A stretch of DNA of 64,000 bases from Candidatus Magasanikbacteria bacterium RIFOXYD1_FULL_40_23 (GTDB taxonomy: Bacteria; Patescibacteriota; Patescibacteriia; Magasanikbacterales; GWA2-37-8), in assembly GCA_001783215.1 (NCBI GenBank), contig MFRA01000001.1, forward strand, positions 62,161 through 126,160, given 5' to 3'. The notes under the pieces are model-generated. The model was not told the origin of the DNA, ran no database searches, and worked only from the letters and a program-made list of their open reading frames with translations. Shown one piece after another: positions 10,227 through 50,413 of this stretch. Every line of letters begins with the position of its first letter. Position 1 is the stretch's first letter. A program made the translations under genes and the position numbers.

Positions 10227-10323
10227 AAAAAAGTGACCTACCAGTCTGCTCTACGCGTCTGCCGCTTCCCCAAAATTAGGTAGGCGGTGACATGCGGGAT
10301 TGCGCAGGACAAACTGATAAGTC
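10225..10323 (-). ncRNA. candidate ~100-nt small transcript antisense-oriented at mnmA 3' end
   Basis: minus-strand TTGACA(10358-10353)-17-TAGTCT(10335-10330) promoter; hairpin CCTACC(10237-42)...GGTAGG(10279-84) followed on minus strand by T-run (A-run 10225-10232 on plus); only a 24-codon SD-less ORF inside. Confidence 0.25.
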
Positions 10324-10931
10324 ATTTTTAGACTATGCTTATTTTTGTGTTTTGTCAATGCTATTAATAGGAGGGGATTTTTTTGAATAAAAAAAGGCCT
10401 CTGTCGACGCACTACTTTACCAGCCCTACGTTCGGCGGAGTGCACAAAGACGTTGTCGTCTGTGCTACCGTCCTGTGGAGATTGTTTCAGCTCCGTGAAC
10501 GTAATCGTTGGGGTGGGGTTGTAGATGCGCCTAAGAGGCCAAAGTCTATGGGTGTGCGTGTAGGATTGCGCTTTGCCTAAGCTAGGCGCTTTGGGATAAC
10601 TATTCCCAGTCCGGTTTGCTTGCTAGCTTTGCAGCTAGGGCGAAAACGGGCCCCGTCTACGCAGTTTTTTCTCCTGTTTGTTGTTTCGAGGTGGTTGATA
10701 GTGGTCGTTTCCTTCTACGTTGCAGGTCTCCTTAGAAGGAGTAGGGAGCCTGCCAACTCCAGTGTGCTGTGCGCGAGATGAGGACGGAGTTGTTGTCCTC
10801 GTTTTGAACCAGTTAACGTTCGTAAGTTTGGGTTACCGTGTTGTCTACCTAAGTGGCATGGCCAAAGGGATCTACCCCAGGTCCCGCTGGGGAACACGGT
10901 TCGCGACAGCAAAAAGAAAATACCACATCCC

Positions 10932-23561: not shown

Positions 23562-24287
23562 ATGCAACCACTCATTAGTGTAATCATTCCAGTCTACAAC
23601 CACGCTCACACCCTAAAAACTTCTATAGAAGGTATTTTTCGTCAAACCTACAGACCGCTAGAAGTGATAGTGGTAGACGACGGCAGTACAGATAATTTTG
23701 AAGAAGCGGTAAAGGAGTGTCTGGCTCTAACAGAAAAAGAATGTATTGGCGAAGGTAGTTTATTATCTGTAATTTCTCAACCAAACGCCGGTGCGCCAGC
23801 TGCGCGTAACCGCGGTTTTGCAGCTTCCAAAGGCGAGTATGTTATATTTTGGGATGCAGATACAATATCCGATCCAAACATGCTGCAAAAAATGTATAAA
23901 GCTTTGCAAAACAACCCACAAGCCGTCTATGCCTATAGTCAATTTAAATTTGGTTGGAAAACATTCAAGAGCCAAGAATTTAATTCAGAAAAATTAAAAC
24001 AAATAAATTATATAGATGTCACTTCGCTTATTCGCCGTAAAGATTTTGTTGGCTTTGATGAAAAAATAAAACGTTTCCAAGATTGGGATTTGTGGCTTAG
24101 TATGTTGGAGCAGGGGAAGATAGGCGTTTTTGTGCCAGAAGTTTTGTATAAAAAAATTGTTGCAGGCAGAGTAGGTATAAGCAATTGGCTGCCAAGTTTT
24201 TTTTATAAGTTACCATGGAAGAGTAAGCAGGTACAAAAGTACGACGATGCCAAAGAAATTATTGTAAAAAAACATAAACTAGTATAA
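23562..24287 (+). CDS. glycosyltransferase family 2
   Basis: ISVIIPVYNHAHTLKTSIEGIFRQTYRPLEVIVVDDGSTDN GT2 N-terminal signature, DAD motif (FWDADT). Confidence 0.8.
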   Translation: MQPLISVIIPVYNHAHTLKTSIEGIFRQTYRPLEVIVVDDGSTDNFEEAVKECLALTEKECIGEGSLLSVISQPNAGAPAARNRGFAASKGEYVIFWDADTISDPNMLQKMYKALQNNPQAVYAYSQFKFGWKTFKSQEFNSEKLKQINYIDVTSLIRRKDFVGFDEKIKRFQDWDLWLSMLEQGKIGVFVPEVLYKKIVAGRVGISNWLPSFFYKLPWKSKQVQKYDDAKEIIVKKHKLV

Positions 24288-29524: not shown

Positions 29525-29549
29525 ATTAAATTTGCTTTAAAAATATTTC

Positions 29550-29578
29550 GAGCCCCGGGATGTGTGTCCTCGGGGCTC
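29550..29578 (-). terminator. intrinsic terminator of island gene 29607-29909
   Basis: gagccccgggatgtgtgtcctcggggctc hairpin; on minus strand followed by T-run (cgaaatattttt). Confidence 0.65.
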
Positions 29579-29606
29579 TTGTGTGTCTTGCGGGCGAGTA
29601 TGTCGT

Positions 29607-29909
29607 CTACTTGATGGCCTCGATCTTCTCGAGGACGTTGCGGCGACTCATCCGACCGACGAAGAAGTCCTGATCGAAATGGTCGGTGAGGGTGATCACC
29701 ATCGTGCGGTTGTGGTCGCGGCCCCAGTCGTTGGTGAACCGGACGATCCCGAGGATCTTCTGGTCATCCGCCGACAGCGATACGTACCCGCCGCCGATCA
29801 TCCCCGACAAGTACTGCAGGTCGGGGATCGCCTCCTTCTTGAAGGTGACCTTGACCTGCTTCTTGCCCTTGAGTGCTTCTTCGAGCGCCTTCACGATCTG
29901 GTCTTGCAT
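29607..29909 (-). CDS. small protein (100 aa) of unknown function, G+C-rich island 1, paralog of 30067-30369
   Basis: start at MQDQIV preceded by GGAGG 8 nt upstream; own promoter and terminator; N- and C-terminal similarity to neighbour (MQxxI..EAL.G..K..V..K..A.P.D ... VT.T...D.D.FV..M......EKIE). Confidence 0.55.
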   Translation of the reverse strand: MQDQIVKALEEALKGKKQVKVTFKKEAIPDLQYLSGMIGGGYVSLSADDQKILGIVRFTNDWGRDHNRTMVITLTDHFDQDFFVGRMSRRNVLEKIEAIK

Positions 29910-29965
29910 CTGAGCCTCCAACATTCATCTTGGGCGTAAGTACCCAAGAAGGTCACTAGGACCGA

Positions 29966-29997
29966 ATAAAATATCATATATTTTGGCTTTTGTCAAT
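29966..29997 (-). promoter_or_regulatory. sigma70-like promoter TTGACA-17-TATTTT for 29607-29909
   Basis: minus-strand reading ccaTTGACAaaagccaaaatatatgaTATTTT; leader ~50 nt with hairpin TCTTGGG..CCCAAGA. Confidence 0.5.
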
Positions 29998-30027
29998 GGT
30001 AGTGTGTTTTTAAAAATAAAAAAAACG

Positions 30028-30053
30028 AGCCCGGGACATGTGTCCTGGGGGCT
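30028..30053 (-). terminator. intrinsic terminator of island gene 30067-30369
   Basis: gagcccgggacatgtgtcctgggggctc hairpin, near-identical to 29550 hairpin; T-run on minus strand. Confidence 0.65.
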
Positions 30054-30066
30054 CTGTTGCAGGGGT

Positions 30067-30369
30067 CTAGGCAATGACTTCGATCTTCTCGACGGCGTTG
30101 CACATCTCCCGAACAAATTGGTCTCTGTCGACTACCTTGGTAAACGTTACCGCAACGGCGCGGTCGTCTTGGCTTTTCCATTGGCGATACCTTTGGAAGT
30201 GCATAAGGCCAGCTCGGCAGCTTGCCGTTAGCCATAGCATGCCACGATTGAACATGGACATTAGGCGTTTGACATCACCCGGTGCTGCATCTTCTTTGAG
30301 AAGGACCTCGATTTTACGGGTGCCCTGTAGGGCTTCGTCTGTGACTCGGGCGATTTTTGCTTGCATCTT
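30067..30369 (-). CDS. small protein (100 aa) of unknown function, G+C-rich island 1, paralog of 29607-29909
   Basis: start at MQAKIARV with AGAGGT SD; ORF-track upstream extension lacks SD; own promoter/terminator. Confidence 0.55.
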   Translation of the reverse strand, partial: KMQAKIARVTDEALQGTRKIEVLLKEDAAPGDVKRLMSMFNRGMLWLTASCRAGLMHFQRYRQWKSQDDRAVAVTFTKVVDRDQFVREMCNAVEKIEVIA

Positions 30370-30424
30370 TACCTCTTGCGTTGGTTTCGCACCCGAAGGC
30401 ACGGGAAAATGGCTAGGGTTGCAT

Positions 30425-30453
30425 AGAATACCATATATTTTTGAATTTGTCAA
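30425..30453 (-). promoter_or_regulatory. sigma70-like promoter TTGACA-17-TATTCT for 30067-30369
   Basis: minus-strand reading aaTTGACAaattcaaaaatatatggTATTCT, similar over its length to the 29966 promoter. Confidence 0.5.
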
Positions 30454-33601: not shown

Positions 33602-34089
33602 TATTTATAAAAAATAAAATCGTGTTATCAGATTATAACCCAACAATAAGAAGGTGTAAAAATTATCTAAAAACTTTTTTATATAGTTTGTTTTTGTTTG
33701 CAATTTCTTTAGGTATTACATATTTCCTGTGTCCGTTTACAGCTAAAATATTCTGTTACATTGGCGGGCCTAGAGAATGTTCAGGCGGCTTCTCCAGTAT
33801 TGATTTTTCTCCGGTTATAGGTATTTTACTTAATTATTTATTTTTTATACCATTGTTATTTATAGTTTTTGGTGATAAAAATAAGTATTGGTGGATTGGT
33901 GTTACGCAATTTTTAATGTTTTTATTTTTAATTCGTGTTTTTTACTCCCCAGTGTACTTTTTAGCTGGAATCTTTAATCTTTTGCCATTTATTTTATCAA
34001 TATTTTTAGGCGTAGCTTTAGGGTTGATAATTGTTAAAATTAAAAACATTGTTTTAAAAAATAAAATGAAATCTACTGTTAAAAAGTAA
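33562..34089 (+). CDS. membrane protein with KYWWIG motif (start uncertain; overlaps preceding ORF)
   Basis: four hydrophobic segments; GDKNKYWWIGVTQFLMFLFL paralogous to motif in 34246 ORF. Confidence 0.45.
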   Translation: MVYPCPKKWCKVLIFIKNKIVLSDYNPTIRRCKNYLKTFLYSLFLFAISLGITYFLCPFTAKIFCYIGGPRECSGGFSSIDFSPVIGILLNYLFFIPLLFIVFGDKNKYWWIGVTQFLMFLFLIRVFYSPVYFLAGIFNLLPFILSIFLGVALGLIIVKIKNIVLKNKMKSTVKK

Positions 34090-34245
34090 TCAAACGAATT
34101 GAGCGAGCGGAAAAGGTGGTTGATCGTATTTTGGCTAAGCAATTATTGCGAAATTTATCTCGTTATCAAACACGAGGTTGGCTAAATAACGAAGCGTATA
34201 ATTTATTAATAGAGGATATTAATTGGTTGTTAAATAATTAAAATT

Positions 34246-34605
34246 ATGAAAAAATTCCTACTAGTTTTAGGGTGGCTAGTTAGTTCGATTTTGTTCGCTG
34301 TATTTTTTGGCCGTTTATATTATTATTTAGGATTTTCAAAAGGCGGAGGGTTATTTTTGTCATCTAATTTTTTTGACGATTTTATTAATGGTTTATTTCC
34401 TTCTTATATATTTTTCCTCACCCTCCTCTTCACCGCCTTCGGTGGCACCAAAAAATACTGGTGGATTGGAATTGCTTTAATCCCGGCAGTGTTATTTGAA
34501 GTAGCGTTTGATTTACAGCATATTTATTTTCCTGTCGCTGTTGGTTTGGTAGGTTGGTTGTTAGGGAAGGGAGTAAACATGTTAGTAGAAAAACATAAGT
34601 TATAA
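34246..34605 (+). CDS. small membrane protein with KYWWIG motif (paralog of preceding gene)
   Basis: GGTKKYWWIGIALIPAVLFEV. Confidence 0.5.
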   Translation: MKKFLLVLGWLVSSILFAVFFGRLYYYLGFSKGGGLFLSSNFFDDFINGLFPSYIFFLTLLFTAFGGTKKYWWIGIALIPAVLFEVAFDLQHIYFPVAVGLVGWLLGKGVNMLVEKHKL

Positions 34606-34620
34606 ACCCTACTAAACCAT

Positions 34621-35145
34621 ATGTCAATCTTCGACATAGCACTTCTTATCATCGTTGCTGGTTTCGCTTTGTTTGGTTTGTGGTTTGGTTTGGTGCACAC
34701 TTTGGGTTCTTTAATCGGTACCATTGTAGGTGTTTATTTAGCCAGCCGATTTTATGGAGTGGTAGCCAATTGGATTATAAATTTTACCGGCTGGAATCAA
34801 AATTATATAACTGTTATCGTTTTCATCGTTTCTTTTCTCTTAATTACTAGACTAGTCGGATTTGTTTTTTGGCTTCTGCAAAAATTCTTATCTATTTTTA
34901 CAAGTCTGCCGTTTATCAAGGGGTTAGATAGAATATTAGGAATGGTTTTTGGAGCTATAGAAGGCGCGTTGGTAGTTGGTATTTCTTTGTATTTCATCGC
35001 TCGTTTTCCAATTAGTTTAATGTTTATGGGTGGACTTGCCGAATCTCAAGTTGCTCCGCCTTTGGTACGTTTGGCTTCTATTCTTATTCCACTCTTCCCC
35101 GAAGCTTTGCGAATGTTGCGAAGTACAGTGGAGAGCCTGATTTAA
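34621..35145 (+). CDS. cvpA: CvpA-family membrane protein
   Basis: MSIFDIALLIIVAGFALFGLWFGLVHTLGSLIGTIVGVYLASRFY typical CvpA N-terminus, 4 TM. Confidence 0.7.
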   Translation: MSIFDIALLIIVAGFALFGLWFGLVHTLGSLIGTIVGVYLASRFYGVVANWIINFTGWNQNYITVIVFIVSFLLITRLVGFVFWLLQKFLSIFTSLPFIKGLDRILGMVFGAIEGALVVGISLYFIARFPISLMFMGGLAESQVAPPLVRLASILIPLFPEALRMLRSTVESLI

Positions 35146-35156
35146 TAAATACCCAA

Positions 35157-35192
35157 GAGATCCCTCGTCGCTATGGCTCGCTCGGGATGACA
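35157..35192. repeat. partial REP-like element (GAGATCCCTCGTCGC...GCTCGGGATGACA)
   Basis: shares gctcgggatgaca / gatccctc arms with 27730 copy. Confidence 0.45.
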
Positions 35193-35199
35193 TTAGAAA

Positions 35200-36060
35200 T
35201 TGTTTATGTTTGATACGCACTGCCATGTACAGTTTAATGGTTTTAAAGATGATGCTGAAGAGGTAATAAAAAAATGCGGTGACAAAAAAATGATTTTGAA
35301 TTTGGTTGGTACTCAAAAAGATACTAGTCGTGCCGGGGTAGAGATGGCCAACAAATTTCCGTTTACCTATGCCAGCATCGGGCTTCATCCAGTTCATCTT
35401 TTTTCTACTCATATAGACGAAGAAGAGAGTAAGTTTTTGTCGCGCGAAGAAACTTTTGATTATGAGTATTATAAAAATTTGGGACAGAGTAAAAAAGTAA
35501 TAGCAGTGGGGGAGTGTGGATTGGATTTATATAGATTACCAGAAGGACGAACAGTAGAAGAAGTGCTAGAAAAACAAAAAGAAACTTTTGCGTTGCAATA
35601 TAAATTGGCGCAAGAATTAAATGTGGCATTGGTAATTCATGTGCGAGAGGCGCACGAGCAGATGATAGAACTTTTGAAAAAACTTTCTAACAACGGTTCG
35701 GTGCGCGGAACGGTGCATTGTTATACCAGCAATTGGCATTTTGCCCAGCAGTATCTAGATATAGGTTTAAATATAGGTTTCACCGGTGTGATTACTTTTC
35801 CTCCAAGAAAAGCAGATCCACAAGCGCAAACAGATTTGCTAGAAGTAGTAAAAAATTGTCCGCTAGATAAAATAGTAGTAGAAACAGATGCGCCGTACTT
35901 GGCGCCGTTGCCATATAGAGGCCAAAGATGTGAACCGCAAATGGTGGAGCAAACCATTCGAAAAATTGCTCAATTAAAAAATATTTCCTTTGAAGAAGCG
36001 GAAAAAGCTACGACCGAAAACGCCAAAAAATTATTTAGAATTTCTTCTGAAAAAAATTGA
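35200..36060 (+). CDS. tatD: TatD-family metal-dependent DNase/hydrolase
   Basis: MFDTHCHVQF N-terminal HxH, GLHP, GECGLD, VIHVREA, ETDAPYL motifs. Confidence 0.9.
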   Translation: MFMFDTHCHVQFNGFKDDAEEVIKKCGDKKMILNLVGTQKDTSRAGVEMANKFPFTYASIGLHPVHLFSTHIDEEESKFLSREETFDYEYYKNLGQSKKVIAVGECGLDLYRLPEGRTVEEVLEKQKETFALQYKLAQELNVALVIHVREAHEQMIELLKKLSNNGSVRGTVHCYTSNWHFAQQYLDIGLNIGFTGVITFPPRKADPQAQTDLLEVVKNCPLDKIVVETDAPYLAPLPYRGQRCEPQMVEQTIRKIAQLKNISFEEAEKATTENAKKLFRISSEKN

Positions 36061-36111
36061 ACCCCGCACCGAACATCGGGCGAGGTAAAGCGTGGGTGTT
36101 GACCGCGAGAG

Positions 36112-36369
36112 TTATCGGGGTACACGCACCTTTTGGGGTCCGTACCTTCTACAGGCGATGTCTTCCTCGGTAATATCGTTGAGGTCGAATTCCATGGAAG
36201 GCGTAAAACCGCCGGTCATGCTAGTGAAGAAGTCCTCTAGCCACTGGTTGAATTCCTTGCCCAGGGACTGTAAGAACGCAATCGTCCAGTAGGTCAGCTC
36301 TTCTCCCAAGGAGCTGAGAGAATCTGACAATTCGTCAATCAACTTCTGAAACTCACTTTTCTTCTTCAT
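36112..36369 (-). CDS. small acidic protein (85 aa), G+C-rich island 2
   Basis: AGAGGA SD before ATG; upstream TTGACC promoter-like box (36420-36415); MKKKSEFQKLIDELSDSLSSLGEELTYW... Confidence 0.5.
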   Translation of the reverse strand: MKKKSEFQKLIDELSDSLSSLGEELTYWTIAFLQSLGKEFNQWLEDFFTSMTGGFTPSMEFDLNDITEEDIACRRYGPQKVRVPR

Positions 36370-36432
36370 GGGTTCCTCTTCCCAGTATTTAACCTATCAT
36401 ATTTTAGATTAGACGGTCAATTATATACAGTA

Positions 36433-36467
36433 ACAAAAAACACTCTGTATTATAGAGTGTTTTTTGT
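36433..36467. terminator. bidirectional intrinsic terminator (A-run / palindrome / T-run)
   Basis: aaaaaacactctgtattatagagtgttttttg: stem AACACTCT/AGAGTGTT flanked by A6 and T6. Confidence 0.65.
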
Positions 36468-36603
36468 TATCCGAGTGAGGTTATATGGCTGCAAATTTGT
36501 TCACCACCATCTTTCTAAAAGACAAGTTTTATCTCTAGAAAGATAGTGAGGTGGCGAACGAATGTTGCCAGGCTCACTGTTAAACGACGTTATAGTCGGA
36601 GGG

Positions 36604-36984
36604 CTAGAAGCCCAGTGTTGCGAGAGCCTGATCGGCTTCGTCGGGAGAGCAAGTGCCCATCCGTTGAGCGATCATGATCTGGCTCGCAACAGGTGTTGCT
36701 TGCGGCAACAATTCCTCGAGCACAGACCGGCGCAAAACCATGAGCGCTTGCAGAATCGAGAGTCGATCCAACAAGGGCAGGTTCTTCTGCTGGATGCGCA
36801 ACGCAAGGACCCGAAGGTCCATTGTGCCGAACAGTACCATGCAGGCTTCGTTGTGTGAGCGAAAGCTCGGGGACTGGAAACCCCCGGGCAGTTCGCGTAA
36901 ACTGCCATCCTGGCAGAGCTCCCCAGTAGCGAGGATGAACTGACCAGTGTGGCCGATGGGCTTGACGAAAACTCGCTCGTTCAT
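36604..36984 (-). CDS. small protein (126 aa), island 2 (start at MNERVFV)
   Basis: GGAGG 10 nt upstream of ATG; balanced composition unlike overlapping Arg/Ser-rich alternative frames; own promoter. Confidence 0.55.
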   Translation of the reverse strand: MNERVFVKPIGHTGQFILATGELCQDGSLRELPGGFQSPSFRSHNEACMVLFGTMDLRVLALRIQQKNLPLLDRLSILQALMVLRRSVLEELLPQATPVASQIMIAQRMGTCSPDEADQALATLGF

Positions 36985-37049
36985 AATGATGGCCTCCAAG
37001 CCTGGTTGAGAGAACGGTTTGTTCCCTCAGCGGGCAGAAAGAACGCGTT

Positions 37050-37109
37050 ATTTTGCCGAGGGAAAGGAAAAGACGATCTTTTCGTATGTTCTTTTCCCTG
37101 GCAAAAGGC
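37050..37109 (-). promoter_or_regulatory. conserved structured 5' UTR hairpin (UUUUGCCAGGG...CCCUCGGCAAAA), copy 1 of 3
   Basis: transcript reads ccttttgccagggaaaagaacatacgaaaagatcgtcttttcctttccctcggcaaaat; outer and inner inverted repeats; ~90 nt upstream of start codon. Confidence 0.55.
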
Positions 37110-37138
37110 GTTACTGCGTGGATTGTAAAGAGCTCTGT

Positions 37139-37167
37139 AATATAGGTTAAAATCTTGCCTTTGTCAA
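37139..37167 (-). promoter_or_regulatory. sigma70-like promoter TTGACA-17-TATATT for 36604-36984
   Basis: minus strand taTTGACAaaggcaagattttaaccTATATT. Confidence 0.55.
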
Positions 37168-37367
37168 TAGGCAAACCCACCACTCTATTTGGAAATATAC
37201 CACTGGGGATATATAATCAATATACACCTAAGATGTGCCTAAAGTTACAATCTATACAAAAAATCAAAAACAGCCTTATCTAAAGCTGTTTTTTAATGGC
37301 GACGTCGTGGTATGCACGACGTCGGCGAGTCGTAATTCTTCTAAACCCGTATCATCAGTCCTGTGGA

Positions 37368-37634
37368 CTAGATGATCTCGAGTTCGACCCTCTCGTACTT
37401 GATTCCCGGATGGGTGGGCTCGTCCCAGTCGAAGTATAGCTCATACACCGCTTCGTCAACGGCAGCAGCGATCTCTTCTGGTGTTCCCAACAACATCGGC
37501 ATGGAGTCGTTGTCGTTTGCAGTCTCCTCGGTTTGAGGAGTGCTTCCGTTGTCTTCTAGAGACTGACCACGTTGATGGGTCATCAGCACGGATTCTGCAA
37601 GTGCGAGGAACTGCGGATCTTCAGGACGAATCAT
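37368..37634 (-). CDS. small acidic protein (88 aa), island 2
   Basis: AGGAG SD; MIRPEDPQFLALAESVLMTHQRGQSLEDNG...; own promoter. Confidence 0.5.
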   Translation of the reverse strand: MIRPEDPQFLALAESVLMTHQRGQSLEDNGSTPQTEETANDNDSMPMLLGTPEEIAAAVDEAVYELYFDWDEPTHPGIKYERVELEII

Positions 37635-37714
37635 TCAGTAGCTCCTAGGAGAGTGGGGTTTATCAATACGAGACGACGCGCAAGTTTGGTTGCGGTGTCT
37701 CATTATGACCAAAA

Positions 37715-37743
37715 ACCATACCATAAAATGTTGTTAAAGTCAA
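37715..37743 (-). promoter_or_regulatory. sigma70-like promoter TTGACT-17-TATGGT for 37368-37634
   Basis: minus strand cTTGACTttaacaacattttatggTATGGT. Confidence 0.5.
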
Positions 37744-37770
37744 GAGCGTAGGGTAGAAAATGATTAAAAT

Positions 37771-37817
37771 AAAAAAAGCCTCGCTTTCGCAAGGCGTCGC
37801 CGTGTATTTTGTTTTTT
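37771..37817. terminator. bidirectional intrinsic terminator
   Basis: aaaaaaagcctcgctttcgcaaggcg...tattttgttttttgg: hairpin GCCTCGC/GCAAGGC with A-run and T-run flanks. Confidence 0.55.
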
Positions 37818-37824
37818 GGCTGTT

Positions 37825-38184
37825 TTAGCCAACAATTATGGATCGCTTGACCCGATTTTCCGTAAGGTAATCAATCACTTCGGAAAGGTCTGGGTTGCTG
37901 TTTCGGATATCTCTGAAACGTGTGTTGAGCAGAGACTTTTTTCCAAAGATAGATCTTGCATACGGCAATCCATTTTGGACTATTCTCTTGACGTCGAAAC
38001 GTCTATCTTTGTTCGGCCCTTCGAAGATAACGACAGTTTCGTCATCTTCGACGATTACAGAGCAGCTCCAATCTTCTTCGCCCACCAACAGATGTGGTGG
38101 ACCAGAATCATCTTTGGGCGGTTCAAGTTTTAGCACGAGCAGGTTGATGCTGCGGAGCAAACCCATGATATGTTGTACCGTCAT
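37825..38184 (-). CDS. small protein (119 aa), island 2
   Basis: GGTGAGG SD; promoter TTGAAA-17-TATATT upstream; plus-strand overlapping ORF lacks signals. Confidence 0.5.
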   Translation of the reverse strand: MTVQHIMGLLRSINLLVLKLEPPKDDSGPPHLLVGEEDWSCSVIVEDDETVVIFEGPNKDRRFDVKRIVQNGLPYARSIFGKKSLLNTRFRDIRNSNPDLSEVIDYLTENRVKRSIIVG

Positions 38185-38217
38185 GGTGCCTCACCCTTTG
38201 GTTGTTTAGTATAGACG

Positions 38218-38246
38218 AATATACCACCAAACCTTTATTTTTTCAA
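38218..38246 (-). promoter_or_regulatory. sigma70-like promoter TTGAAA-17-TATATT for 37825-38184
   Basis: minus strand gcTTGAAAaaataaaggtttggtggTATATT. Confidence 0.5.
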
Positions 38247-38312
38247 GCTAAATTTACAACGTCACTCTTTAGCGGATGTTGCGTGGTATAACTTAATTAA
38301 GTCAAAAAAAAG

Positions 38313-38362
38313 ACCTCGTATTGAAGTTGCCTTGGGGGCTATTCAATACGAGGCTGAACGTC
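38313..38362 (-). terminator. intrinsic terminator of 38403-38798
   Basis: 12-bp stem CCTCGTATTGAA/TTCAATACGAGG with 16-nt loop, T8 on minus strand. Confidence 0.65.
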
Positions 38363-38402
38363 TTGGTCTGCTTTGCGACTGATGTCGCTGGTAGAACCTA
38401 GT

Positions 38403-38798
38403 CTACTGCTGAGCGGTGTTGCGGGGGTACAAGTAGATGTAGCACCCCGTGTCGTGCGAGTCGACCGCGTAGCCGGTCTGGTCCTTCTCGGCCTCGAGGC
38501 GGAGCTCGACGTTGGTCGGCAGGCTGCGGACGATCGCGTTGATCTCCTTGTTGGCCTTGGCGCAGGGGATGCGGCCGAGGCGAGCGCGGAGCTCGAGGTC
38601 CTGGATCTCCTTGATCGCGGCCTTGAGCTGCTTCTTGCTGATGCTCTTGGCAGCCGCGGCGCGCACGGGCTTCTTCTCGTTGGTGTCGTTCGCCTTCGAG
38701 ACGAAGCCGGCGTCGGCGTGGGCCGTGCTGATGCCGAGGTCGAACAGGGCGATGAAGCCGACGGTCAGGGCGATGGCGATGATGGCGATGCGGGTCAT
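38403..38798 (-). CDS. small secreted protein (131 aa, signal peptide), island 2
   Basis: MTRIAIIAIALTVGFIALFDLGISTAHA signal-peptide-like N-terminus; GAGGAG SD; lysine/alanine-rich mature part. Confidence 0.55.
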   Translation of the reverse strand: MTRIAIIAIALTVGFIALFDLGISTAHADAGFVSKANDTNEKKPVRAAAAKSISKKQLKAAIKEIQDLELRARLGRIPCAKANKEINAIVRSLPTNVELRLEAEKDQTGYAVDSHDTGCYIYLYPRNTAQQ

Positions 38799-38857
38799 GG
38801 GACTCTCCTCGGTAACGGGTTCGTAACGTTAACTGCTTGCCGGCGCACAAAGGTGTG

Positions 38858-38914
38858 CTTTTGTGCCGGGGAAGTGAAAGTGTAGCCTCTACACTCCCTT
38901 TTCCCTGGCAAAAC
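38858..38914 (-). promoter_or_regulatory. conserved structured 5' UTR hairpin, copy 2 of 3
   Basis: transcript reads cgttttgccagggaaaagggagtgtagaggctacactttcacttccccggcacaaaag; same outer arms UUUUGCCAGGG/CCCCGGCA.AAAA. Confidence 0.55.
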
Positions 38915-38945
38915 GCAAACAGTTATTATTAAAGATCAACAGACA

Positions 38946-38974
38946 ACTATACCATAAAACTAGGACTTTGTCAA
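38946..38974 (-). promoter_or_regulatory. sigma70-like promoter TTGACA-17-TATAGT for 38403-38798
   Basis: minus strand ccTTGACAaagtcctagttttatggTATAGT. Confidence 0.55.
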
Positions 38975-39040
38975 GGGGTTGATTTGGCGAAATCACGTCG
39001 CGTAGCGTCCATTGAACGCGACGTTTGGCTAATTTTAGGC

Positions 39041-39084
39041 AAAAAAACAGCGCTACCTACACCTAGTTGGTGAGTGGTAGCGCC
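39041..39084 (-). terminator. intrinsic terminator of 39116-39529
   Basis: minus strand gcgctaccactcaccaactaggtgtaggtagcgc then tgttttttt. Confidence 0.55.
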
Positions 39085-39115
39085 TGCGTTGGTACGGCTC
39101 TAGTCGCAGTTGCGA

Positions 39116-39529
39116 CTATGGCCAGATAAGTGGAATGTCCATGCTGGGGTAGATGGCCTCCAGGGTGTAGAGGTCCATGTCCATCACGGACAGGTACCAC
39201 TCGAAGTCGAAGAGTTCGACGGAAGTCGTGGGAGGGTTAGCATCCCACCAAGCACAGTTGCCAAACCGCCACCTTCGCAGAGCTTCGTAGTACTCCGCTT
39301 CCAGCTCGACAAGCTTGTCTCGACAAGCTTGGCTAGTCGTGCCGCCGATATAGCGACAGGTAAGCTTTGGGTATTGGAGCTGGCTCTCGGCGAGGGTGTA
39401 TCGCTGCTTCAGCTTCTTGCACGTATCGTAGTCGTACGTGCCCGAGGGTGGCGTATCGGCATAGGCCGTGCCGACGTTCGGCAGCAGCATGCCCAGAGCA
39501 ATACACATCGCGATCAGGATCTTCACCAT
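39116..39529 (-). CDS. small secreted Cys-containing protein (137 aa), island 2 (start at MVKILIAM)
   Basis: GGAGAG SD before internal Met; MVKILIAMCIALGMLLPNVGTAYA signal peptide; four Cys in mature part. Confidence 0.55.
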   Translation of the reverse strand: MVKILIAMCIALGMLLPNVGTAYADTPPSGTYDYDTCKKLKQRYTLAESQLQYPKLTCRYIGGTTSQACRDKLVELEAEYYEALRRWRFGNCAWWDANPPTTSVELFDFEWYLSVMDMDLYTLEAIYPSMDIPLIWP

Positions 39530-39564
39530 TTCTCTGTCTCTCCAATTTCTTCTGTGACGGTTGA

Positions 39565-39619
39565 TTTTTACCAAGACGAAAGAAGCTACGAATTTCGCAT
39601 ATTCTTTTATCTCGGTAAA
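39565..39619 (-). promoter_or_regulatory. conserved structured 5' UTR hairpin, copy 3 of 3 (with compensatory ACC:GGU for GCC:GGC)
   Basis: transcript reads ctttaccgagataaaagaatatgcgaaattcgtagcttctttcgtcttggtaaaaat. Confidence 0.55.
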
Positions 39620-39652
39620 GAGCAGACCGCTTGGTTAAATGAGCGATTCGCC

Positions 39653-39682
39653 ATCTTATATTAAAAAATGCCTTTTGTCAAT
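39653..39682 (-). promoter_or_regulatory. sigma70-like promoter TTGACA-17-TAAGAT for 39116-39529
   Basis: minus strand taTTGACAaaaggcattttttaataTAAGAT. Confidence 0.45.
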
Positions 39683-39699
39683 AGTCGGACTAGTAGATC

Positions 39700-40010
39700 A
39701 TTTTCAAAAATCCTTGATTTTACTTTGATTTACATGTAAAATAATCGCGTTCTTACCATTTTGTATAGCTTAACCACTTCGCGTATGGAACAGGAATAAT
39801 TACAAAATCTTCCAGTCGTGATTACCAGATTTTGTCCTTTAAAATCATCGAAAGTTTTGGTGCTTCTATTGCAGTACCAGTGGTAAGATTTGTTCTAATC
39901 GGTCAATACTTTGATAAAAAATATAACTTATAACCGTTGTTTACTGTTATAGCCTTTGTGCTGGCCGCTGCCACCACTCAAAACGCAAAAAAACTATTTA
40001 GTAAAATGAT
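39700..40010 (+). pseudogene. decayed duplicate of atp-operon promoter plus atpZ/atpI-like gene (direct repeat of 43355-43660)
   Basis: ~85% identical by eye to 43355-43660 including TTGA(t/c)T promoter; reading frame broken: atggaacaggaaTAA after 4 codons and second in-frame TAA where intact copy has LSP. Confidence 0.7.
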
Positions 40011-40023
40011 GTTATAATTAAGT

Positions 40024-40854
40024 ATGAATGAAATAAAACACGGAATGGATCCGGAGACTGCTCGAGAAGAGGGAAGAAAATCTGTTCGTGAAACGCTAGC
40101 GCATACGTTAGGGTTTATTGCTCAGCGCATAGATGCGGAAGGGTTAGATTCGCTAGAGGACGATGCGGTTAAAGCTTTGTGTAGTTATAGAATGGGAGAT
40201 GCGCTTAGGGTGGAAGTTGAGATTCCAAAATCAATAAGGAAGTTTTTTGCAGAACGAAAAGATTTTTCCGTTTTAAAAAAAGTTTTAGAAGACACAACCG
40301 AAACGATGAATAAAATTATCTCCAATCCCGATATCTTTGTTACTGGTACTTCTGATTCAGAAGAACAGAAAATAATTAATAAACAACTTGTTACAGAACG
40401 CGACCAGGCTGAAAGTTTGTATAGAGTATTGGTTTGGAAAGCTGTGCTGCACCATCTTGCTCCTACAGATATTGCTGGTTTTACAGAATTTTGTGAATGT
40501 ATAGAGCGTTATGATGCAATGCTTGTGTCGCGAGGTATAACACGTAAGGCAGCCTCTAGCTTGCTTGGAAACCGCTTTTTCTTATTGGAAAAATCGCAAA
40601 GTTGGGTAGAAAAATTGTCGCACCCGGAAGGTGCGAAAAATCGGCCATTTTCTGAAGCTGAACCGAACTTAGAGAGTGTGAGCAACTATATTGTTGATGG
40701 TAATTCCGCTGAATGGGTCGAGGGCTATGCCGCTCAGAATGTTCAATTTAAAACAGATTTAATAGAAAAGATCCATTCTTTTATAGATATTAATGAAGAG
40801 GTAAGTGTACGGGCTAGTGAATGGTTAAAAAATCAGCAGTCGCTAGAAAATTAA
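40024..40854 (+). CDS. hypothetical protein (276 aa), cassette gene 1
   Basis: hydrophilic ORF, no motif assigned. Confidence 0.5.
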   Translation: MNEIKHGMDPETAREEGRKSVRETLAHTLGFIAQRIDAEGLDSLEDDAVKALCSYRMGDALRVEVEIPKSIRKFFAERKDFSVLKKVLEDTTETMNKIISNPDIFVTGTSDSEEQKIINKQLVTERDQAESLYRVLVWKAVLHHLAPTDIAGFTEFCECIERYDAMLVSRGITRKAASSLLGNRFFLLEKSQSWVEKLSHPEGAKNRPFSEAEPNLESVSNYIVDGNSAEWVEGYAAQNVQFKTDLIEKIHSFIDINEEVSVRASEWLKNQQSLEN

Positions 40855-40858
40855 ATAA

Positions 40859-41806
40859 TTAGTTTGTTATATCATCTTCTTTATCAAAAGAAAATTGACC
40901 ATCAGGACAGTTGAAAAGTTTATCAAATAGTAGGCGGGGATCAGGGTATTTTGTTATTACACTATGGAAGGCTTGTGCAATCTCATTCCCTCCATCATTT
41001 TCTGCACTTTGCTCTCCAGCAGTATGGTTTGAAGGAAGCAGGTCTTCAAATTCCTCTAACTGACGTAGCGTTTCGGTAGACAACTCCGGCGGGTAATGTA
41101 TGTTATAATCATATAGTCTCTGGCTAGCGGCAAAGCTTTCCATTGCGTCTTCGGGAGATTCGCCCGGTTCAAGGTTTATTGTAGCGGTTATATTTCCGTT
41201 TTTTACCGCTTGGGTTGATTTATTATCTGCAATTATTTCCAATTCTTTACGGCGTGCTTCTGGAACAAGTTTCATGTAGTGTGCGGGAATCTCAACGCTA
41301 GAAGCGTACTGCACTATTTGATTTTCTAAAAAAATAACAAATGTATCGCGAGCTACAGTCAAAATATCTTTATTATTACTACGGTATTCTAGGAGTAAAT
41401 ATGCCCTTTGAGGCAGTAGCTGTTCTACTATTACCGATAAGGCAGTACGCTGAAATCCGGGAAGTTTTTCCCATATTCCTTTTAGTGCAGCTTCATTTAT
41501 TTTAATTTTTTCGATCGGGGTCCAGTCTGGATTAAAGTTGTTTCGTACACCCTCGAGACTATATAATAGTAACATAGCTACAAAAGCCGGTAAATCTCTT
41601 GCGGTGGCCATTAAATTTTTATCCTCTAGTACTCGTAAGTATTGTGCTTCGGCAGGGGTTAGTGGTTTTTGGTTTTCTACAGCAAGCATCTTTTCGTATT
41701 CATCAACTAAACTGTTGTAAGCTTTTTTTGACTCTGGAGATAGGATAAGTTCTAAGGATGGTTCATCGGCCGTCAGTGCGTCAAAATGGTGTCTTTGATT
41801 ATCCAT
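40859..41806 (-). CDS. hypothetical protein (315 aa), cassette gene 2, convergent with gene 1
   Basis: hydrophilic acidic ORF on minus strand, stops 5 nt from gene-1 stop. Confidence 0.5.
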   Translation of the reverse strand: MDNQRHHFDALTADEPSLELILSPESKKAYNSLVDEYEKMLAVENQKPLTPAEAQYLRVLEDKNLMATARDLPAFVAMLLLYSLEGVRNNFNPDWTPIEKIKINEAALKGIWEKLPGFQRTALSVIVEQLLPQRAYLLLEYRSNNKDILTVARDTFVIFLENQIVQYASSVEIPAHYMKLVPEARRKELEIIADNKSTQAVKNGNITATINLEPGESPEDAMESFAASQRLYDYNIHYPPELSTETLRQLEEFEDLLPSNHTAGEQSAENDGGNEIAQAFHSVITKYPDPRLLFDKLFNCPDGQFSFDKEDDITN

Positions 41807-41960
41807 AAATCAAATTTAATTTAAAAACTTATTAATATACTAACATCTTAATTCTAAGACAGTCAATTCAAGCTTTTATTTAGTTGATTTTTCTATTAAA
41901 AAGGGCTAAACTTTCCATGTCCCCACCTTTAATTTATAAGATTTTATTTAATATAATAGT

Positions 41961-42440
41961 ATGGCCGAGCATTTTGAAGGCGGTTATCATTCAAAAGAAG
42001 AACCGACAACAGTCGAAGTAGATCAAGACGAAGAATGGAAGTTTGCTTCGGCCCCAGCCGTTATTGAAACAACAGGGCTTGGTCCTTGCTTTGGTATAAT
42101 TATTTATGATCCCGAAAGCAAGTCTGCCTTTCTCGGGCATTTTGTTGACCCCCGTACAAATGGTTTTGATGGCATGCTAGCAGAAGCTAAAAAACATTTC
42201 AAAGATTTTACCAATTTGCAGGCATATGTTGGTGGAGGTGAACCAAATCCCGACGATGCTCCCTATTTTAAAGAAGACAAAGCCAAAAGAACCTTTGTAA
42301 AAAACAAGTTACTTCAAAGCGGGTTTAACAAGGAGAAGCTCAAAATTAAATATCAGGACTCAAACCAAAGTACGATTTTAAGAATTGATACGGTTACTGG
42401 AAACGTAGATTGGGACACCGAAGACGAGGATAACTATTGA
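41961..42440 (+). CDS. CheD-like (glutamine deamidase fold) protein, cassette gene 3
   Basis: TTGLGPCFGIIIYDPESKSAFLGHFVDP matches CheD catalytic-Cys block (T.LGSCV.V.LYDP....GG..H.MLP); 159 aa = CheD size; TATAAT ends 3 nt before ATG (possibly leaderless). Confidence 0.45.
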   Translation: MAEHFEGGYHSKEEPTTVEVDQDEEWKFASAPAVIETTGLGPCFGIIIYDPESKSAFLGHFVDPRTNGFDGMLAEAKKHFKDFTNLQAYVGGGEPNPDDAPYFKEDKAKRTFVKNKLLQSGFNKEKLKIKYQDSNQSTILRIDTVTGNVDWDTEDEDNY

Positions 42441-42501
42441 CACCTCTTAAATGTTCCACTACCCAGAATAAACGATTTTTTATTATTTAAATTTTATTTA
42501 T

Positions 42502-43341
42502 ATGGGAGAACGAAGGAAAAACCCCTCAGAAGCAGTGGGTGCTGGTAAAAAAGAAAAACATGAATTTAAGTTTAAGGAATTAAGCGAGGAAGAAAGATAT
42601 GATGAAGCGAAAAAAAACGCTCGTATGGTTCTCAAAGAACTTGCTCCGGCAGGTTCTACCGATGATACTCAGGTGGCATATCACTGGAACGAACACGACT
42701 TTGATTCCAATCCGAAAATAGCAACTATTGGAGAATTGCGTATAATGATAGAGCACATGGAAGATTGTAATGCGGGAGGGCCAGGGTATCCTGGTATGCG
42801 TTTTACTATTTCTCATTTAAGTGTGGGGGATGAATTTGTAAGGCGTGAACGCGTGGTATCTTTTTGTCGTGAGGCTAGGTTAAAAAATTTATCCAAATGG
42901 GGTCCGTTAGAAGACGACGCTGTTATTTGGGTAACCACCACGAAACGCCCGCAACCAAGGAAAACAATAGTGAGAGAGTGGTTGGGAATGTTGGGAAAAT
43001 TAGATTACGCTGCTGCAGAAGCAGATAACGAAATGGGAGGGGAACACATTGTTTCTATTGATCCAAATTTTGATCCAAAAAAATGGGACGAGGAAAACCG
43101 TAGAGAACAGGTTGGAATGATACAAAAGGTAATTGATGCTGTAGAAAACCGGGGCCGATTGTTAGAAGGGTTAGAAGCAAGAAAAGACAAGTCTCTAGTA
43201 CGCCTTTTTTTTCCTAAGACTGGCGAGAGTATCACTCTAACGCCTAAAAAAATGCGTTTACATATTCAGTCATTATCACGTGGTGTTCTTGAAGACCAGG
43301 AGCCAATTTTTACCGACGTCTATGCATCTGAGGATAATTAA
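42502..43341 (+). CDS. hypothetical protein (279 aa), cassette gene 4
   Basis: hydrophilic ORF, no motif assigned. Confidence 0.5.
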   Translation: MGERRKNPSEAVGAGKKEKHEFKFKELSEEERYDEAKKNARMVLKELAPAGSTDDTQVAYHWNEHDFDSNPKIATIGELRIMIEHMEDCNAGGPGYPGMRFTISHLSVGDEFVRRERVVSFCREARLKNLSKWGPLEDDAVIWVTTTKRPQPRKTIVREWLGMLGKLDYAAAEADNEMGGEHIVSIDPNFDPKKWDEENRREQVGMIQKVIDAVENRGRLLEGLEARKDKSLVRLFFPKTGESITLTPKKMRLHIQSLSRGVLEDQEPIFTDVYASEDN

Positions 43342-43372
43342 TTTTTACCAAAGGCATTATTTTTCAAAAACC

Positions 43373-43401
43373 TTGACTTTTCTAGGATTTATATGTAAAA
43401 T
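43373..43401 (+). promoter_or_regulatory. sigma70-like promoter TTGACT-17-TAAAAT of atp operon
   Basis: ccTTGACTtttctaggatttatatgTAAAAT; duplicated (degenerate) at 39712-39740. Confidence 0.55.
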
Positions 43402-43443
43402 AGTCGCGTTCTTACCGTTTTATATAGATTCGTTACTTAACGT

Positions 43444-43719
43444 ATGGAACCGCAAAACCCACAAAAATCTTCCGGCCGTGATTACCAGATATTGGCCTTC
43501 AAAATCATCGGAAGTTTTGGTGCTTCTATCGCAGTGCCGGTAGTAGGATTTGTTCTAATCGGTCAATACTTTGATAAAAAATATAGCTTGTCACCGCTGT
43601 TTACTATATTAGCCTTTGTGCTGGCCGCTGCAATTTCTGCAAAGATAATCCACAAACAAGCAAAAAGTTTTGGCGCAGAATACAAAAGGTTAAATGATGC
43701 TGGAAAGATAATCAAGTAA
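43444..43719 (+). CDS. AtpZ/AtpI-like small membrane protein preceding atpB
   Basis: 91 aa, two hydrophobic segments, position immediately upstream of F0 a-subunit. Confidence 0.5.
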   Translation: MEPQNPQKSSGRDYQILAFKIIGSFGASIAVPVVGFVLIGQYFDKKYSLSPLFTILAFVLAAAISAKIIHKQAKSFGAEYKRLNDAGKIIK

Positions 43720-50078: not shown

Positions 50079-50363
50079 CTATTCTGGAAATGGAAGGAAC
50101 GACATAACACGGAGAGTTTCATATGGAGGAGAGTGGTGAAAGCGGGGGCAAATGTCACCAAGATAATCCCACAACTCTTTTTCTCCAAGATCCTCACGCA
50201 AATTCTCCCAGTTATACCTCTGAACTGGTTTAGACAGTAAATTAGTTAAACGGTCAAGGATCTCAATCGTAGCAGAAACTTTAAGCACCCTTGCCTCCAT
50301 AAAATTACCAATCTTATCAAAAGCATGGATAAGGAGCAACCATTCTCTAGATTTCTGTGACAT
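50079..50363 (-). CDS. small protein (94 aa) encoded antisense between atpD and atpC
   Basis: AGGAGG 8 nt before ATG; minus-strand promoter TTGACA-17-TATACT; shares hairpin terminator GCCTGCC..GGCAGGC (50039-50061) with atpD. Confidence 0.45.
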   Translation of the reverse strand: MSQKSREWLLLIHAFDKIGNFMEARVLKVSATIEILDRLTNLLSKPVQRYNWENLREDLGEKELWDYLGDICPRFHHSPPYETLRVMSFLPFPE

Positions 50364-50384
50364 GGTAAGATCCTCCTAGAAAGG

Positions 50385-50413
50385 AGTATAGAAAAATAAA
50401 AATTTTATGTCAA
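50385..50413 (-). promoter_or_regulatory. sigma70-like promoter TTGACA-17-TATACT for the antisense small gene; -35 overlaps atpC start codon
   Basis: minus strand gtgTTGACAtaaaatttttatttttcTATACT. Confidence 0.45.

Follow-up and report, generated by a model that had tools for sequence, protein, structure and literature searches.

In Candidatus Magasanikbacteria bacterium RIFOXYD1_FULL_40_23, the gap between tatD and atpI is filled by an island of six small genes (g1 to g6, positions 36061-39690), which was analysed in a 64,000-nucleotide (nt) stretch of contig MFRA01000001.1 (positions 62,161 to 126,160), here called the window. The island probably represents an array of six autonomous cassettes for small proteins that is resident in one Magasanikbacteria sub-clade, is inherited vertically and diversifies rapidly. 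Its open reading frames (ORFs) are genuine protein genes, as indicated by codon periodicity, ratios of nonsynonymous to synonymous divergence (dN/dS) below 1, frames kept in relatives and one confident predicted fold. The sequence-only reading that preceded this analysis had described a G+C-rich block with its own set of expression signals and two signal-peptide-like products, and had proposed import from a high-GC organism. It is upheld in part: the block is an addition whose translation signal and codon spelling differ from those of the core genes, and two products are probably exported, while the proposed recent import is not upheld. Unusual composition combined with 'foreign' signals is the standard argument for recent transfer. 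The argument fails here because genes with a G+C content of up to 0.98 at third codon positions (GC3), in a genome of 38% G+C, have diverged along with their neighbours and kept their spelling.

The G+C content of the island is 0.499, compared to 0.381 in the remaining window. The contrast that had been noted by eye is thus real, but the stretch is not 'well above 50%' throughout, as local values over 400 nt range from 0.42 to 0.655 and the 1-kb bins are at 0.49, 0.45, 0.53 and 0.46. The excess is patchy and restricted to coding sequences (CDS; 0.45-0.66, compared to 0.38-0.49 in the spacers), where it is held by the third codon positions. The codon-usage check that had been suggested bears this out: GC3 is 0.48-0.98 in the six genes, compared to 0.308 ± 0.034 in 30 large plus-strand genes of the window, and codon choice is inverted, with AAG, ATC, TTC and AAC used at 80%, 79%, 79% and 90% in the units and at 17%, 16%, 16% and 32% in the host. 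CTG and CGC are likewise among the codons preferred by the units. All six ORFs (85-137 amino acids, aa) are on the minus strand, whereas the plus strand carries nearly all of the ORFs that reach 120 aa or more in the rest of the window, in agreement with the earlier description, and the units are head-on to both the dominant gene orientation and the GC skew. The locus (34000-42000) is at least 99.97% identical across independent assemblies (ENA, NCBI, JGI and Logan) and, thus, is not an assembly chimera. Identical proteins of the locus are found in records of Rifle aquifer Magasanikbacteria metagenome-assembled genomes (MAGs; OGH91989-92, OGH93275-80, GCA_001783315.1 and a 393-kb ENA contig).

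The residency of the array is apparent from TatD-anchored loci of 21 species-representative genomes and 34 metagenome contigs (loci are numbered with the prefix L). In eleven Magasanikbacteria-type loci with TatD proteins of 54-67% identity, tatD is followed by atpI and atpB within ~0.4-0.5 kb, and L018-L024 and L040-L044 have nothing in the tatD-atp gap. At 73-74% TatD identity the gap has other content, a 346-aa plus-strand gene in L038 and a lipase-like gene in L017. By contrast, L015 (TatD 83%) and L016 (TatD 81%) have ~2.4 kb with four minus-strand units of the same build, which encode a g1 homologue, an acidic protein of 116-118 aa, a 38-aa ORF and a signal-peptide protein with a GC3 of 0.96-0.99. 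In L037 (TatD 92%), the order of the window recurs, with tatD followed by orthologues of g1 and g2 and by a terminator that resembles that of g3, and L036 has g6 and g5 in tandem. The synteny comparison that had been proposed therefore confirms that the ancestral gene order lacked the block, since tatD adjoins the atp genes in eleven more distant loci, and the gap is filled in L015, L016 and L037. As unit arrays are missing from the site only in relatives with TatD identities of 74% or less, the array is a fixed-site feature of one sub-clade.

Nei-Gojobori estimates place the units in the same history as their flanks. Between the window and L037, dN/dS and synonymous divergence (dS) are 0.06 and 0.80 for TatD, 0.07 and 1.14 for CvpA, 0.31 and 1.12 for g1, and 0.29 and 0.99 for g2. 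Between L015 and L016, the core genes have a dN/dS of 0.01-0.12 and a dS of 0.13-0.28, while the units have a dN/dS of 0.48-0.78 and a dS of 0.10-0.17. Between the window and L014, dS is 0.74 for the flanking Pif1 and 0.63 for g8 (dN/dS 0.18), a member of a second cluster (g7 and g8) that is described below. Because units and neighbouring core genes have matching dS in each of the three species pairs, the units have been vertically inherited since these splits. Compared to L036, dN/dS is 0.20 for g6 and 0.73 for g5 (dN 0.135, dS 0.186). On these estimates the unit proteins are constrained, several-fold less than core proteins, and TatD is 92% identical where g1 and g2 are ~50% and 60% identical. 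Genes that are transcribed head-on to replication (lagging-strand genes) are proposed to evolve faster through replication-transcription conflicts (PMC5585990), although this is disputed (PMC3879979). Similarly to such genes, the units are short, apparently strongly promoted and encode proteins that change several-fold faster than their neighbours; by contrast, their synonymous rate is not above that of co-directional neighbours. Head-on mutagenesis was therefore rejected as the cause of the fast evolution, and the raised dN/dS is instead a matter of selection or constraint and not of mutation rate.

The G+C-rich spelling is kept over these same distances. GC3 is 0.69 and 0.79 in the two copies of g2 (dS ~1), 0.98 and 0.94 in those of g5, 0.99 and 0.96 in the g5-like unit of L015 and L016, and 0.58-0.59 in g8 of three lineages. 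In the g8 trio, polarised lineage-specific third-position changes amount to 16 from GC to AT and 16 from AT to GC, while neutral decay from 0.58 to the host value of 0.31 predicts a ratio of ~3:1 (binomial P(≤16/32) = 0.0016). Exchanges between C and G make up 5 of 9 synonymous third-position differences in g5, compared to 3 of 123 in TatD and CvpA. GC3 is thus maintained, the opposite of amelioration, and either selection on RNA or translation, or a GC-biased process that acts on the ORFs only, is called for. Ordinary translational codon bias was rejected, as ribosomal-protein genes have a GC3 of 0.28-0.38.

Recent horizontal acquisition, in which the six genes and their signals came from one or several high-GC donors (e.g., the host of an epibiont) with staggered arrival and decaying GC3, is unlikely in the light of these results. 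It would account for a composition far from that of the host (GC3 up to 0.98 versus 0.31, with AAG, CTG, CGC and ATC preferred), for the lack of the block in more distant relatives, for a use of Shine-Dalgarno (SD) sites that is alien to the host's own genes and for the graded GC3 of 0.38 to 0.98 that staggered amelioration would yield. However, orthologous units are at the same site in three relatives with the dS of flanking core genes, GC3 is unchanged or higher after a dS of ~1 and the polarised changes of g8 are balanced. Promoters and AT-rich spacers have a native appearance. Neither an integrase nor a transposase domain was found in or beside the six-unit block, no tRNA gene was found in the window and no terminal repeats were found to bound the block. 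The only long repeat of the region (39701-39971 and 43361-43631) flanks the neighbouring four-gene segment and not the six units. A donor is likewise missing from the searches: exhaustive phmmer of g5 against 1.84 billion representative proteins recovered one true relative, the 79% identical L036 copy of a sister population, profile searches with g1 and g7/g8 recovered Magasanikbacteria copies only, and the plasmid, phage and IMG/VR scans given below were without a source. A second g5 match, P0012, is an 851-aa repeat protein that hits an 18-residue stretch 16 times and was judged spurious. Thus, of the features of a recent genomic island, the atypical composition is found here, while absence from close relatives, mobility hallmarks, and a donor with amelioration are not.

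GC-biased gene conversion (gBGC), in which the unit sites are recombination hotspots that exchange cassettes among related strains and the high GC3 is a by-product without mRNA selection, is also improbable. The site content is hypervariable among close relatives, a diverged 272-bp duplication at the island edge is consistent with past recombination, GC3 is at equilibrium while the proteins change freely, and the C/G exchanges of g5 exceed those of the core genes. By contrast, the AT-rich spacers, promoters and terminators of the same tracts (0.38-0.42) are not GC-enriched, paralogues that are 160 bp apart differ (g7 at 0.90 and g8 at 0.58) with each level kept in orthologues, and a further gene of the same format, g9, has a GC3 of 0.38. 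A GC3 of 0.98 in a genome of 38% G+C would far exceed the effects of gBGC that are reported in bacteria.

The six single-gene units that had been read from the letters, each with its own promoter, SD site and terminator, are recovered as sequence-level matches (Table 1). Promoter-like sites of the sigma-70 type number 14 in 35500-40500, compared to 5.2 ± 2.3 in shuffled sequence, and include five of the six unit promoters. Those of g2 to g6 share TTGACA/T or TTGAAA, a 17-nt spacer and TAnnnT, with an extended TG in three. The g1 promoter was found by regular expression and is weaker, and it is kept in three relatives. A hairpin and T-run is found at the 3' end of every unit; that of g1 overlaps the 3' end of the convergent tatD, and the hairpin of g2 at 36432-36468 is a perfect bidirectional terminator. 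Host operons have the same promoter type (e.g., the atp promoter at 43373), and the transcription signals are thus native.

Table 1. Small-gene units of the window and the right boundary of the island; promoters are given as -35 element, spacer length and -10 element (TG, extended -10), leaders with their folding z-scores, and SD sites with predicted anti-SD duplex energies in kcal/mol.
Feature	Extent	Strand	Promoter	Leader, nt (z)	SD (energy)	CDS (aa)	GC3	3' hairpins, terminator
g1 (unit 1)	36050-36420	-	36391-36420, TTGACC-18-TAGGTT		gggaagagga (-6.0)	36112-36369 (85)	0.65	terminator hairpin 36050-36085
g2 (unit 2)	36432-37167	-	37139-37167, TTGACA-17-TATATT	149 (-5.2)	ggagg (-9.3)	36604-36984 (126)	0.69	36502-36554, 36432-36468
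g3 (unit 3)	37258-37743	-	37715-37743, TTGACT-17-TATGGT, TG	75 (-4.2)	(-6.5)	37368-37634 (88)	0.61	37298-37327, 37258-37293
g4 (unit 4)	37771-38246	-	38218-38246, TTGAAA-17-TATATT, TG	28	(-7.4)	37825-38184 (119)	0.48	terminator 37771-37795
g5 (unit 5)	38304-38974	-	38946-38974, TTGACA-17-TATAGT, TG	142 (-3.4)	gaggag	38403-38798 (131)	0.98	terminator 38304-38353
g6 (unit 6)	39041-39681	-	39653-39681, TTGACA-17-TAAGAT	118 (-3.6)	(-6.4)	39116-39529 (137)	0.75	terminator 39041-39084
Right island boundary	39701-39971	+	degenerate atp promoter			atpI 5' part (pseudo-atpI with internal stop)
g7		-	29968-29996			29607-29909 (100)	0.90	terminator 29539-29578
g8		-	30425-30453			30067-30366 (99)	0.58	terminator 30012-30054
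g9	50079-50413	-	from 50413, TTGACA-17-TATACT		aggagg	50079-50363 (94)	0.38	hairpin terminator

The predicted translation signals, by contrast, are not native when compared to the bulk genome. All eight units tested have an anti-SD duplex energy between -6.0 and -9.3 kcal/mol, compared to a mean of -0.64 kcal/mol in 41 host genes (start codons taken from the longest ORFs), of which 5% are at or below -6; the host mean is weaker than that of random 20-mers of the window (-2.3 kcal/mol). The SD contrast with core genes that had been pointed out earlier is therefore borne out. The only clear SD-led genes among the 41 tested encode a polysaccharide flippase (Polysacc_synt/MurJ-like, 20436-21887) and a family-2 glycosyltransferase (23562-24287), both within a glycan-synthesis cluster. 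The leaders of g2, g3, g5 and g6 (75-149 nt) fold better than shuffled sequences (z of -3.4 to -5.2), with hairpins at 37045-37109 in g2 and 38857-38916 in g5. These two genes have a homologous promoter and leader-hairpin base before unrelated ORFs, including a 19-nt identity (GCSTTTTGCCAGGGAAAAG). The g5 leader is ~4% diverged from the L036 copy and, thus, is more conserved than its CDS. The base of the leader stem is common to four sequences with a compensatory change in one pair only; the case for a leader structure is therefore made by folding z-scores and conservation and not by covariation.

On the favoured view of a resident array, the SD site, structured leader and GC-rich codons would form a maintained expression format and not a leftover of a donor. 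Such a format may be kept by selection on the mRNA, which would act on its structure, its stability or a translation channel that depends on SD sites; alternatively, a recombination hotspot with GC-biased gene conversion may keep it. New cassettes would arise by duplication of whole units, as suggested by g7/g8 and by three copies in L013, and also by reuse of a promoter-leader module before unrelated ORFs, as suggested by g2 and g5. The products are tentatively viewed as accessory, fast-evolving proteins, of which g5 and g6 may be exported by the general secretory (Sec) pathway to the surface or medium and the others may be cytoplasmic (g1 and g3 being acidic). The turnover and high dN/dS of the units suggest, as a guess, that the products act on partner cells or phages and not in housekeeping, and the term 'effector-like' that was first applied to the products is likewise a guess.

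It is conceivable, with a low probability, that the cassettes form a separate expression channel, in which head-on, GC-recoded and SD-led mRNAs are selected more at the nucleotide than at the protein level in a cell where bulk mRNAs are A/U-rich and without SD sites. Translation or stability of such mRNAs could persist when that of bulk mRNAs fails, for example while ribosomes are remodelled, while RNases or toxins are active or upon attachment to a partner cell; in an extreme form, they could be formatted for expression inside a high-GC, SD-using partner cell. The format could also serve as a cradle for the birth and testing of new small proteins. This channel would fit with a unit that has no ORF (10395-10915, described below) and with the promoter-leader module shared by g2 and g5.

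Several points weigh against reading the island as a resident array of protein cassettes. No orthologue was recovered for g3 and g4, and their coding status is supported by periodicity and signals. The GC3-equilibrium test is based on 32 polarised changes in one family, which is outside of the island. The promoters, SD sites and terminators are consensus matches. SD function in this cell is predicted and unproven: the window does not include a 16S 3' end, and the anti-SD motif was detected by a survey in only 48% of Parcubacteria 16S genes (PMC9297842). For single cassettes such as g5, with a dS of only 0.19, there is a residual probability of repeated import into one hotspot, with a GC-rich element that has not been sampled as the source.

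A remnant of a prophage or other mobile element, with the units as classical morons or as cargo left after decay of the element, is quite improbable. The comparison is apt in architecture: phage morons (e.g., HK97 gene 15; Juhala/Hendrix; PMC3594210) are single small ORFs with their own promoter and terminator that are placed between unrelated genes and differ from these in base composition, and moron genes are often ORFans (without recognised homologues) with accessory, surface or exclusion functions. A decayed element would also be in keeping with the adjacent segment of 3.4 kb (40024-43341), in which 272-bp direct repeats enclose four ORFans. By contrast, the units described here are chromosomal and are found between core genes (tatD/atp, pif1/lipase and atpD/atpC), and further units in this format are scattered over three other chromosomal sites. 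They have been passed on vertically along with their flanks, and their odd composition is maintained and is not the scar of a transfer. No integrase, capsid, terminase or replication genes were found in or beside the block and no prophage or phage relatives were found. Searches of PHROGs gave no match below E = 0.03, tblastn against 72,556 plasmid and 50,697 phage records gave none at E ≤ 1, and five scans of IMG/VR gave no real match. The sole IMG/VR match (20 residues of g6, in a giant-virus MAG) was judged spurious. Thus, the units share with morons the autonomous build, as judged at the sequence level, and the atypical G+C, but not the phage location or spread.

That the ORFs are not genes, and that the GC-rich stretches are structured non-coding RNAs or have their real genes in the overlapping plus-strand ORFs, is very improbable: GC-rich islands of AT-rich genomes are often structured RNAs, a same-format unit (10395-10915) is without any ORF and some public gene calls took plus-strand ORFs, but three-base periodicity with a third-position excess is found in the minus-strand frames only (GC1/GC2/GC3 of 0.58/0.42/0.98 in g5), dN/dS is below 1 with frames conserved in orthologues, SD and ATG are correctly spaced in all units, g8 has a confident fold and Rfam gave no match. 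The plus-strand ORFs over g5 and g6, already suspected of being spurious, have a G+C of 0.66-0.88 at their first codon positions, the mirror artefact of a GC3-rich gene on the other strand, and the minus-strand frames are those conserved in orthologues. Gene callers disagree on the GC-rich units between assemblies L001-L009, in which the calls are either a wrong frame of 150 aa or two ORFs on the plus strand (167 and 184 aa). The exact g5 protein is missing from a collection of 15 billion proteins because the gene callers took other frames. GC3-rich genes in A+T-rich genomes of the Candidate Phyla Radiation (CPR) may be systematically mis-annotated.

The lack of a recognised family for the six proteins is upheld by database searches: Pfam and PADLOC gave no significant match, PDB sequences gave none, and a metagenome scan with the g5-family alignment gave no confirmed locus. 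Rfam 15 had no match in the whole window at gathering thresholds and only chance-level matches in 35800-40100 (E ≥ 0.13). The g1 protein is acidic (pI 4.6) and helical, with same-site homologues of 47-55% identity in L037 and 26-34% in L015 and L016; the AlphaFold2 (AF2) model of its family is poor, with a predicted local distance difference test score (pLDDT) of 53. The g2 orthologue of L037 is 60% identical with a GC3 of 0.79. The g3 protein is very acidic (pI 4.1, 20 Asp and Glu); no protein homologue was recovered for it, and L037 has a matching terminator hairpin upstream of its g2 orthologue. The g4 gene, with the lowest GC3 of the island, has a 78-aa fragment as its sole cluster mate.

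Two products have signal-peptide-like N-termini, as noticed at first, with n-, h- and c-regions and cleavage motifs of AHA|D and AYA|D. The signal peptide predicted for g5, a protein with two Cys residues, is MTR followed by IAIIAIALTVGFIALF and ...STAHA|DAG, and that predicted for g6, whose mature part has four Cys residues, is MVK followed by ILIAMCIALGMLL and ...GTAYA|DTP. By these heuristics, the two proteins have the basic n-region, h-region and AxA before the cleavage site that are used by signal peptidase I (SPase I), with 15-residue Kyte-Doolittle maxima of 2.9 in g5 and 2.6 in g6 at residues 2-4, and the ...AYA|D pattern recurs in relatives. The C-terminal 88 aa of g6 are 89% identical to L036. 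Homology of g5 to the signal-peptide unit beside tatD in L015 and L016 is possible, with 18-24% identity, two conserved Cys residues and short motifs in a MAFFT alignment; BLASTP gives no support (E = 28). In the L005/L008 assembly (ERZ4902888 NODE_436), a 118-bp deletion (39390-39507) inside g6 shifts the frame, and either represents a population variant without g6 or an assembly error.

Other known systems share single features of the array. A type II toxin-antitoxin or immunity pair is not indicated, as the units are monocistronic with terminators between them and without Pfam or PADLOC match. An integron array is not indicated, as every unit comes with a promoter and terminator of its own, hairpin and T-run terminators account for the inverted repeats between units, and no tyrosine-recombinase domain was found in the flanking genes, no search with an attC model having been made. 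Similarly to plasticity zones with ORFans, the island is at a fixed site between conserved genes, its content varies among close relatives, and its proteins have elevated dN/dS and no homologues outside of the lineage. Typically, bacterial ORFans and hotspot cargo have a higher A+T content than the host genome. By contrast, the units described here are strongly G+C-richer at synonymous sites, and each is monocistronic, SD-led and head-on. In Flavobacteria, the known SD-led case is regulatory (rpsU/bS21). As in SD-poor systems (Bacteroidota, and some Parcubacteria that are reported to be without the anti-SD motif, PMC9297842), the bulk genes of the window have A/U-rich leaders without SD sites and a small minority is SD-led; the difference is that the SD-led set here consists of fast-evolving ORFan cassettes with recoded ORFs. 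The SAP and TENGU effectors of phytoplasmas are comparable to g5 and g6 as small, lineage-specific and fast-evolving Sec proteins of a small-genome, host-dependent bacterium; here, only two of the six products have predicted signal peptides and the context is unlike the potential mobile units (PMUs) of phytoplasmas.

No earlier description of such cassettes was found in the literature, of which only PMC9297842 was relevant, and moron-like ORFan cassettes with long-term GC-rich synonymous sites and SD sites in an A+T-rich, SD-poor genome are apparently undescribed. If the favoured account is true, (i) a specific class of CPR genes is under strong directional synonymous pressure (mRNA selection or biased conversion) that is rarely so cleanly visible, (ii) an organism with almost no SD-led genes retains a small SD-dependent set, by which anti-SD use in Parcubacteria becomes directly testable, and (iii) gene callers mis-frame such genes, and a class of CPR small proteins may be systematically missing from databases. 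The two probably exported proteins are candidates for a part in the surface biology and the interactions of Magasanikbacteria.

Units of the same build are found elsewhere in the window. The g7/g8 cluster spans 29539-30453, outside of the island, and is head-on between pif1 (Pif1-type helicase) and a 914-aa lipase-like gene. The two are paralogous (33% identity, E = 4e-14) with similar terminators, and the related Logan contig L013 has three tandem units of the family; thus, whole units duplicate. Orthologues of g8 in L013 and L014 have a dN/dS of 0.16-0.26. The AF2 model of the g8 family is confident (pLDDT 93.4, predicted template modelling score 0.82), with helices that alternate with strands, and its structural neighbours are generic ferredoxin-like only. 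The g9 gene is placed head-on within the atp operon, with atpD and atpC as its neighbours, and the loci retrieved from relatives yielded no homologue of it. Its GC3 is close to that of host genes, which shows that an SD-led, head-on unit does not require a high GC3.

At its right boundary, the island abuts a duplication of the atp promoter region, as had been recognised from the letters together with the neighbouring cassette between direct repeats. The left copy of this 272-bp direct repeat (39701-39971) and the functional right copy (43361-43631) have 85% identity. In L015, the promoter of the last unit abuts an intact atpI in the same manner. Between the repeat copies (3.4 kb, 40024-43341) are four ORFan genes of 276, 315, 159 and 279 aa with normal composition and without Pfam match. 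The segment appears to have been inserted in an event of its own, possibly through recombination with the atpI region of a relative.

Between mnmA and alaS, ~520 nt of 53% G+C on the minus strand (10395-10915) are bounded by a promoter (TTGACA-17-TATTTT, TG, at 10945) and a hairpin and T-run terminator, with no ORF of more than 76 aa and no Rfam match. This unit is followed by a further element of ~104 nt (~10232-10335) that is bounded by a promoter and terminator. The two are candidate non-coding RNAs in the same outward format as the protein cassettes. A cassette of the same format, with a GC3 of 0.60, is found elsewhere in the genome of L015 (2838-3173, minus strand); its product of 111 aa is zinc-ribbon-like, with many CxxC motifs.

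Small genes that are SD-led and GC3-rich may be widespread across the group. In other Parcubacteria, csrA is directly upstream of tatD (L025 7776-8015, L028 7674-7964, L029 4833-5027 and L032 4589-4777) with a sigma-70 consensus promoter, a predicted SD energy of -8.8 to -11.7 kcal/mol and a GC3 of 0.53-0.72 in genomes of 33-38% G+C. L028, L029 and L035 have a small, SD-led and membrane-anchored minus-strand gene downstream of tatD.

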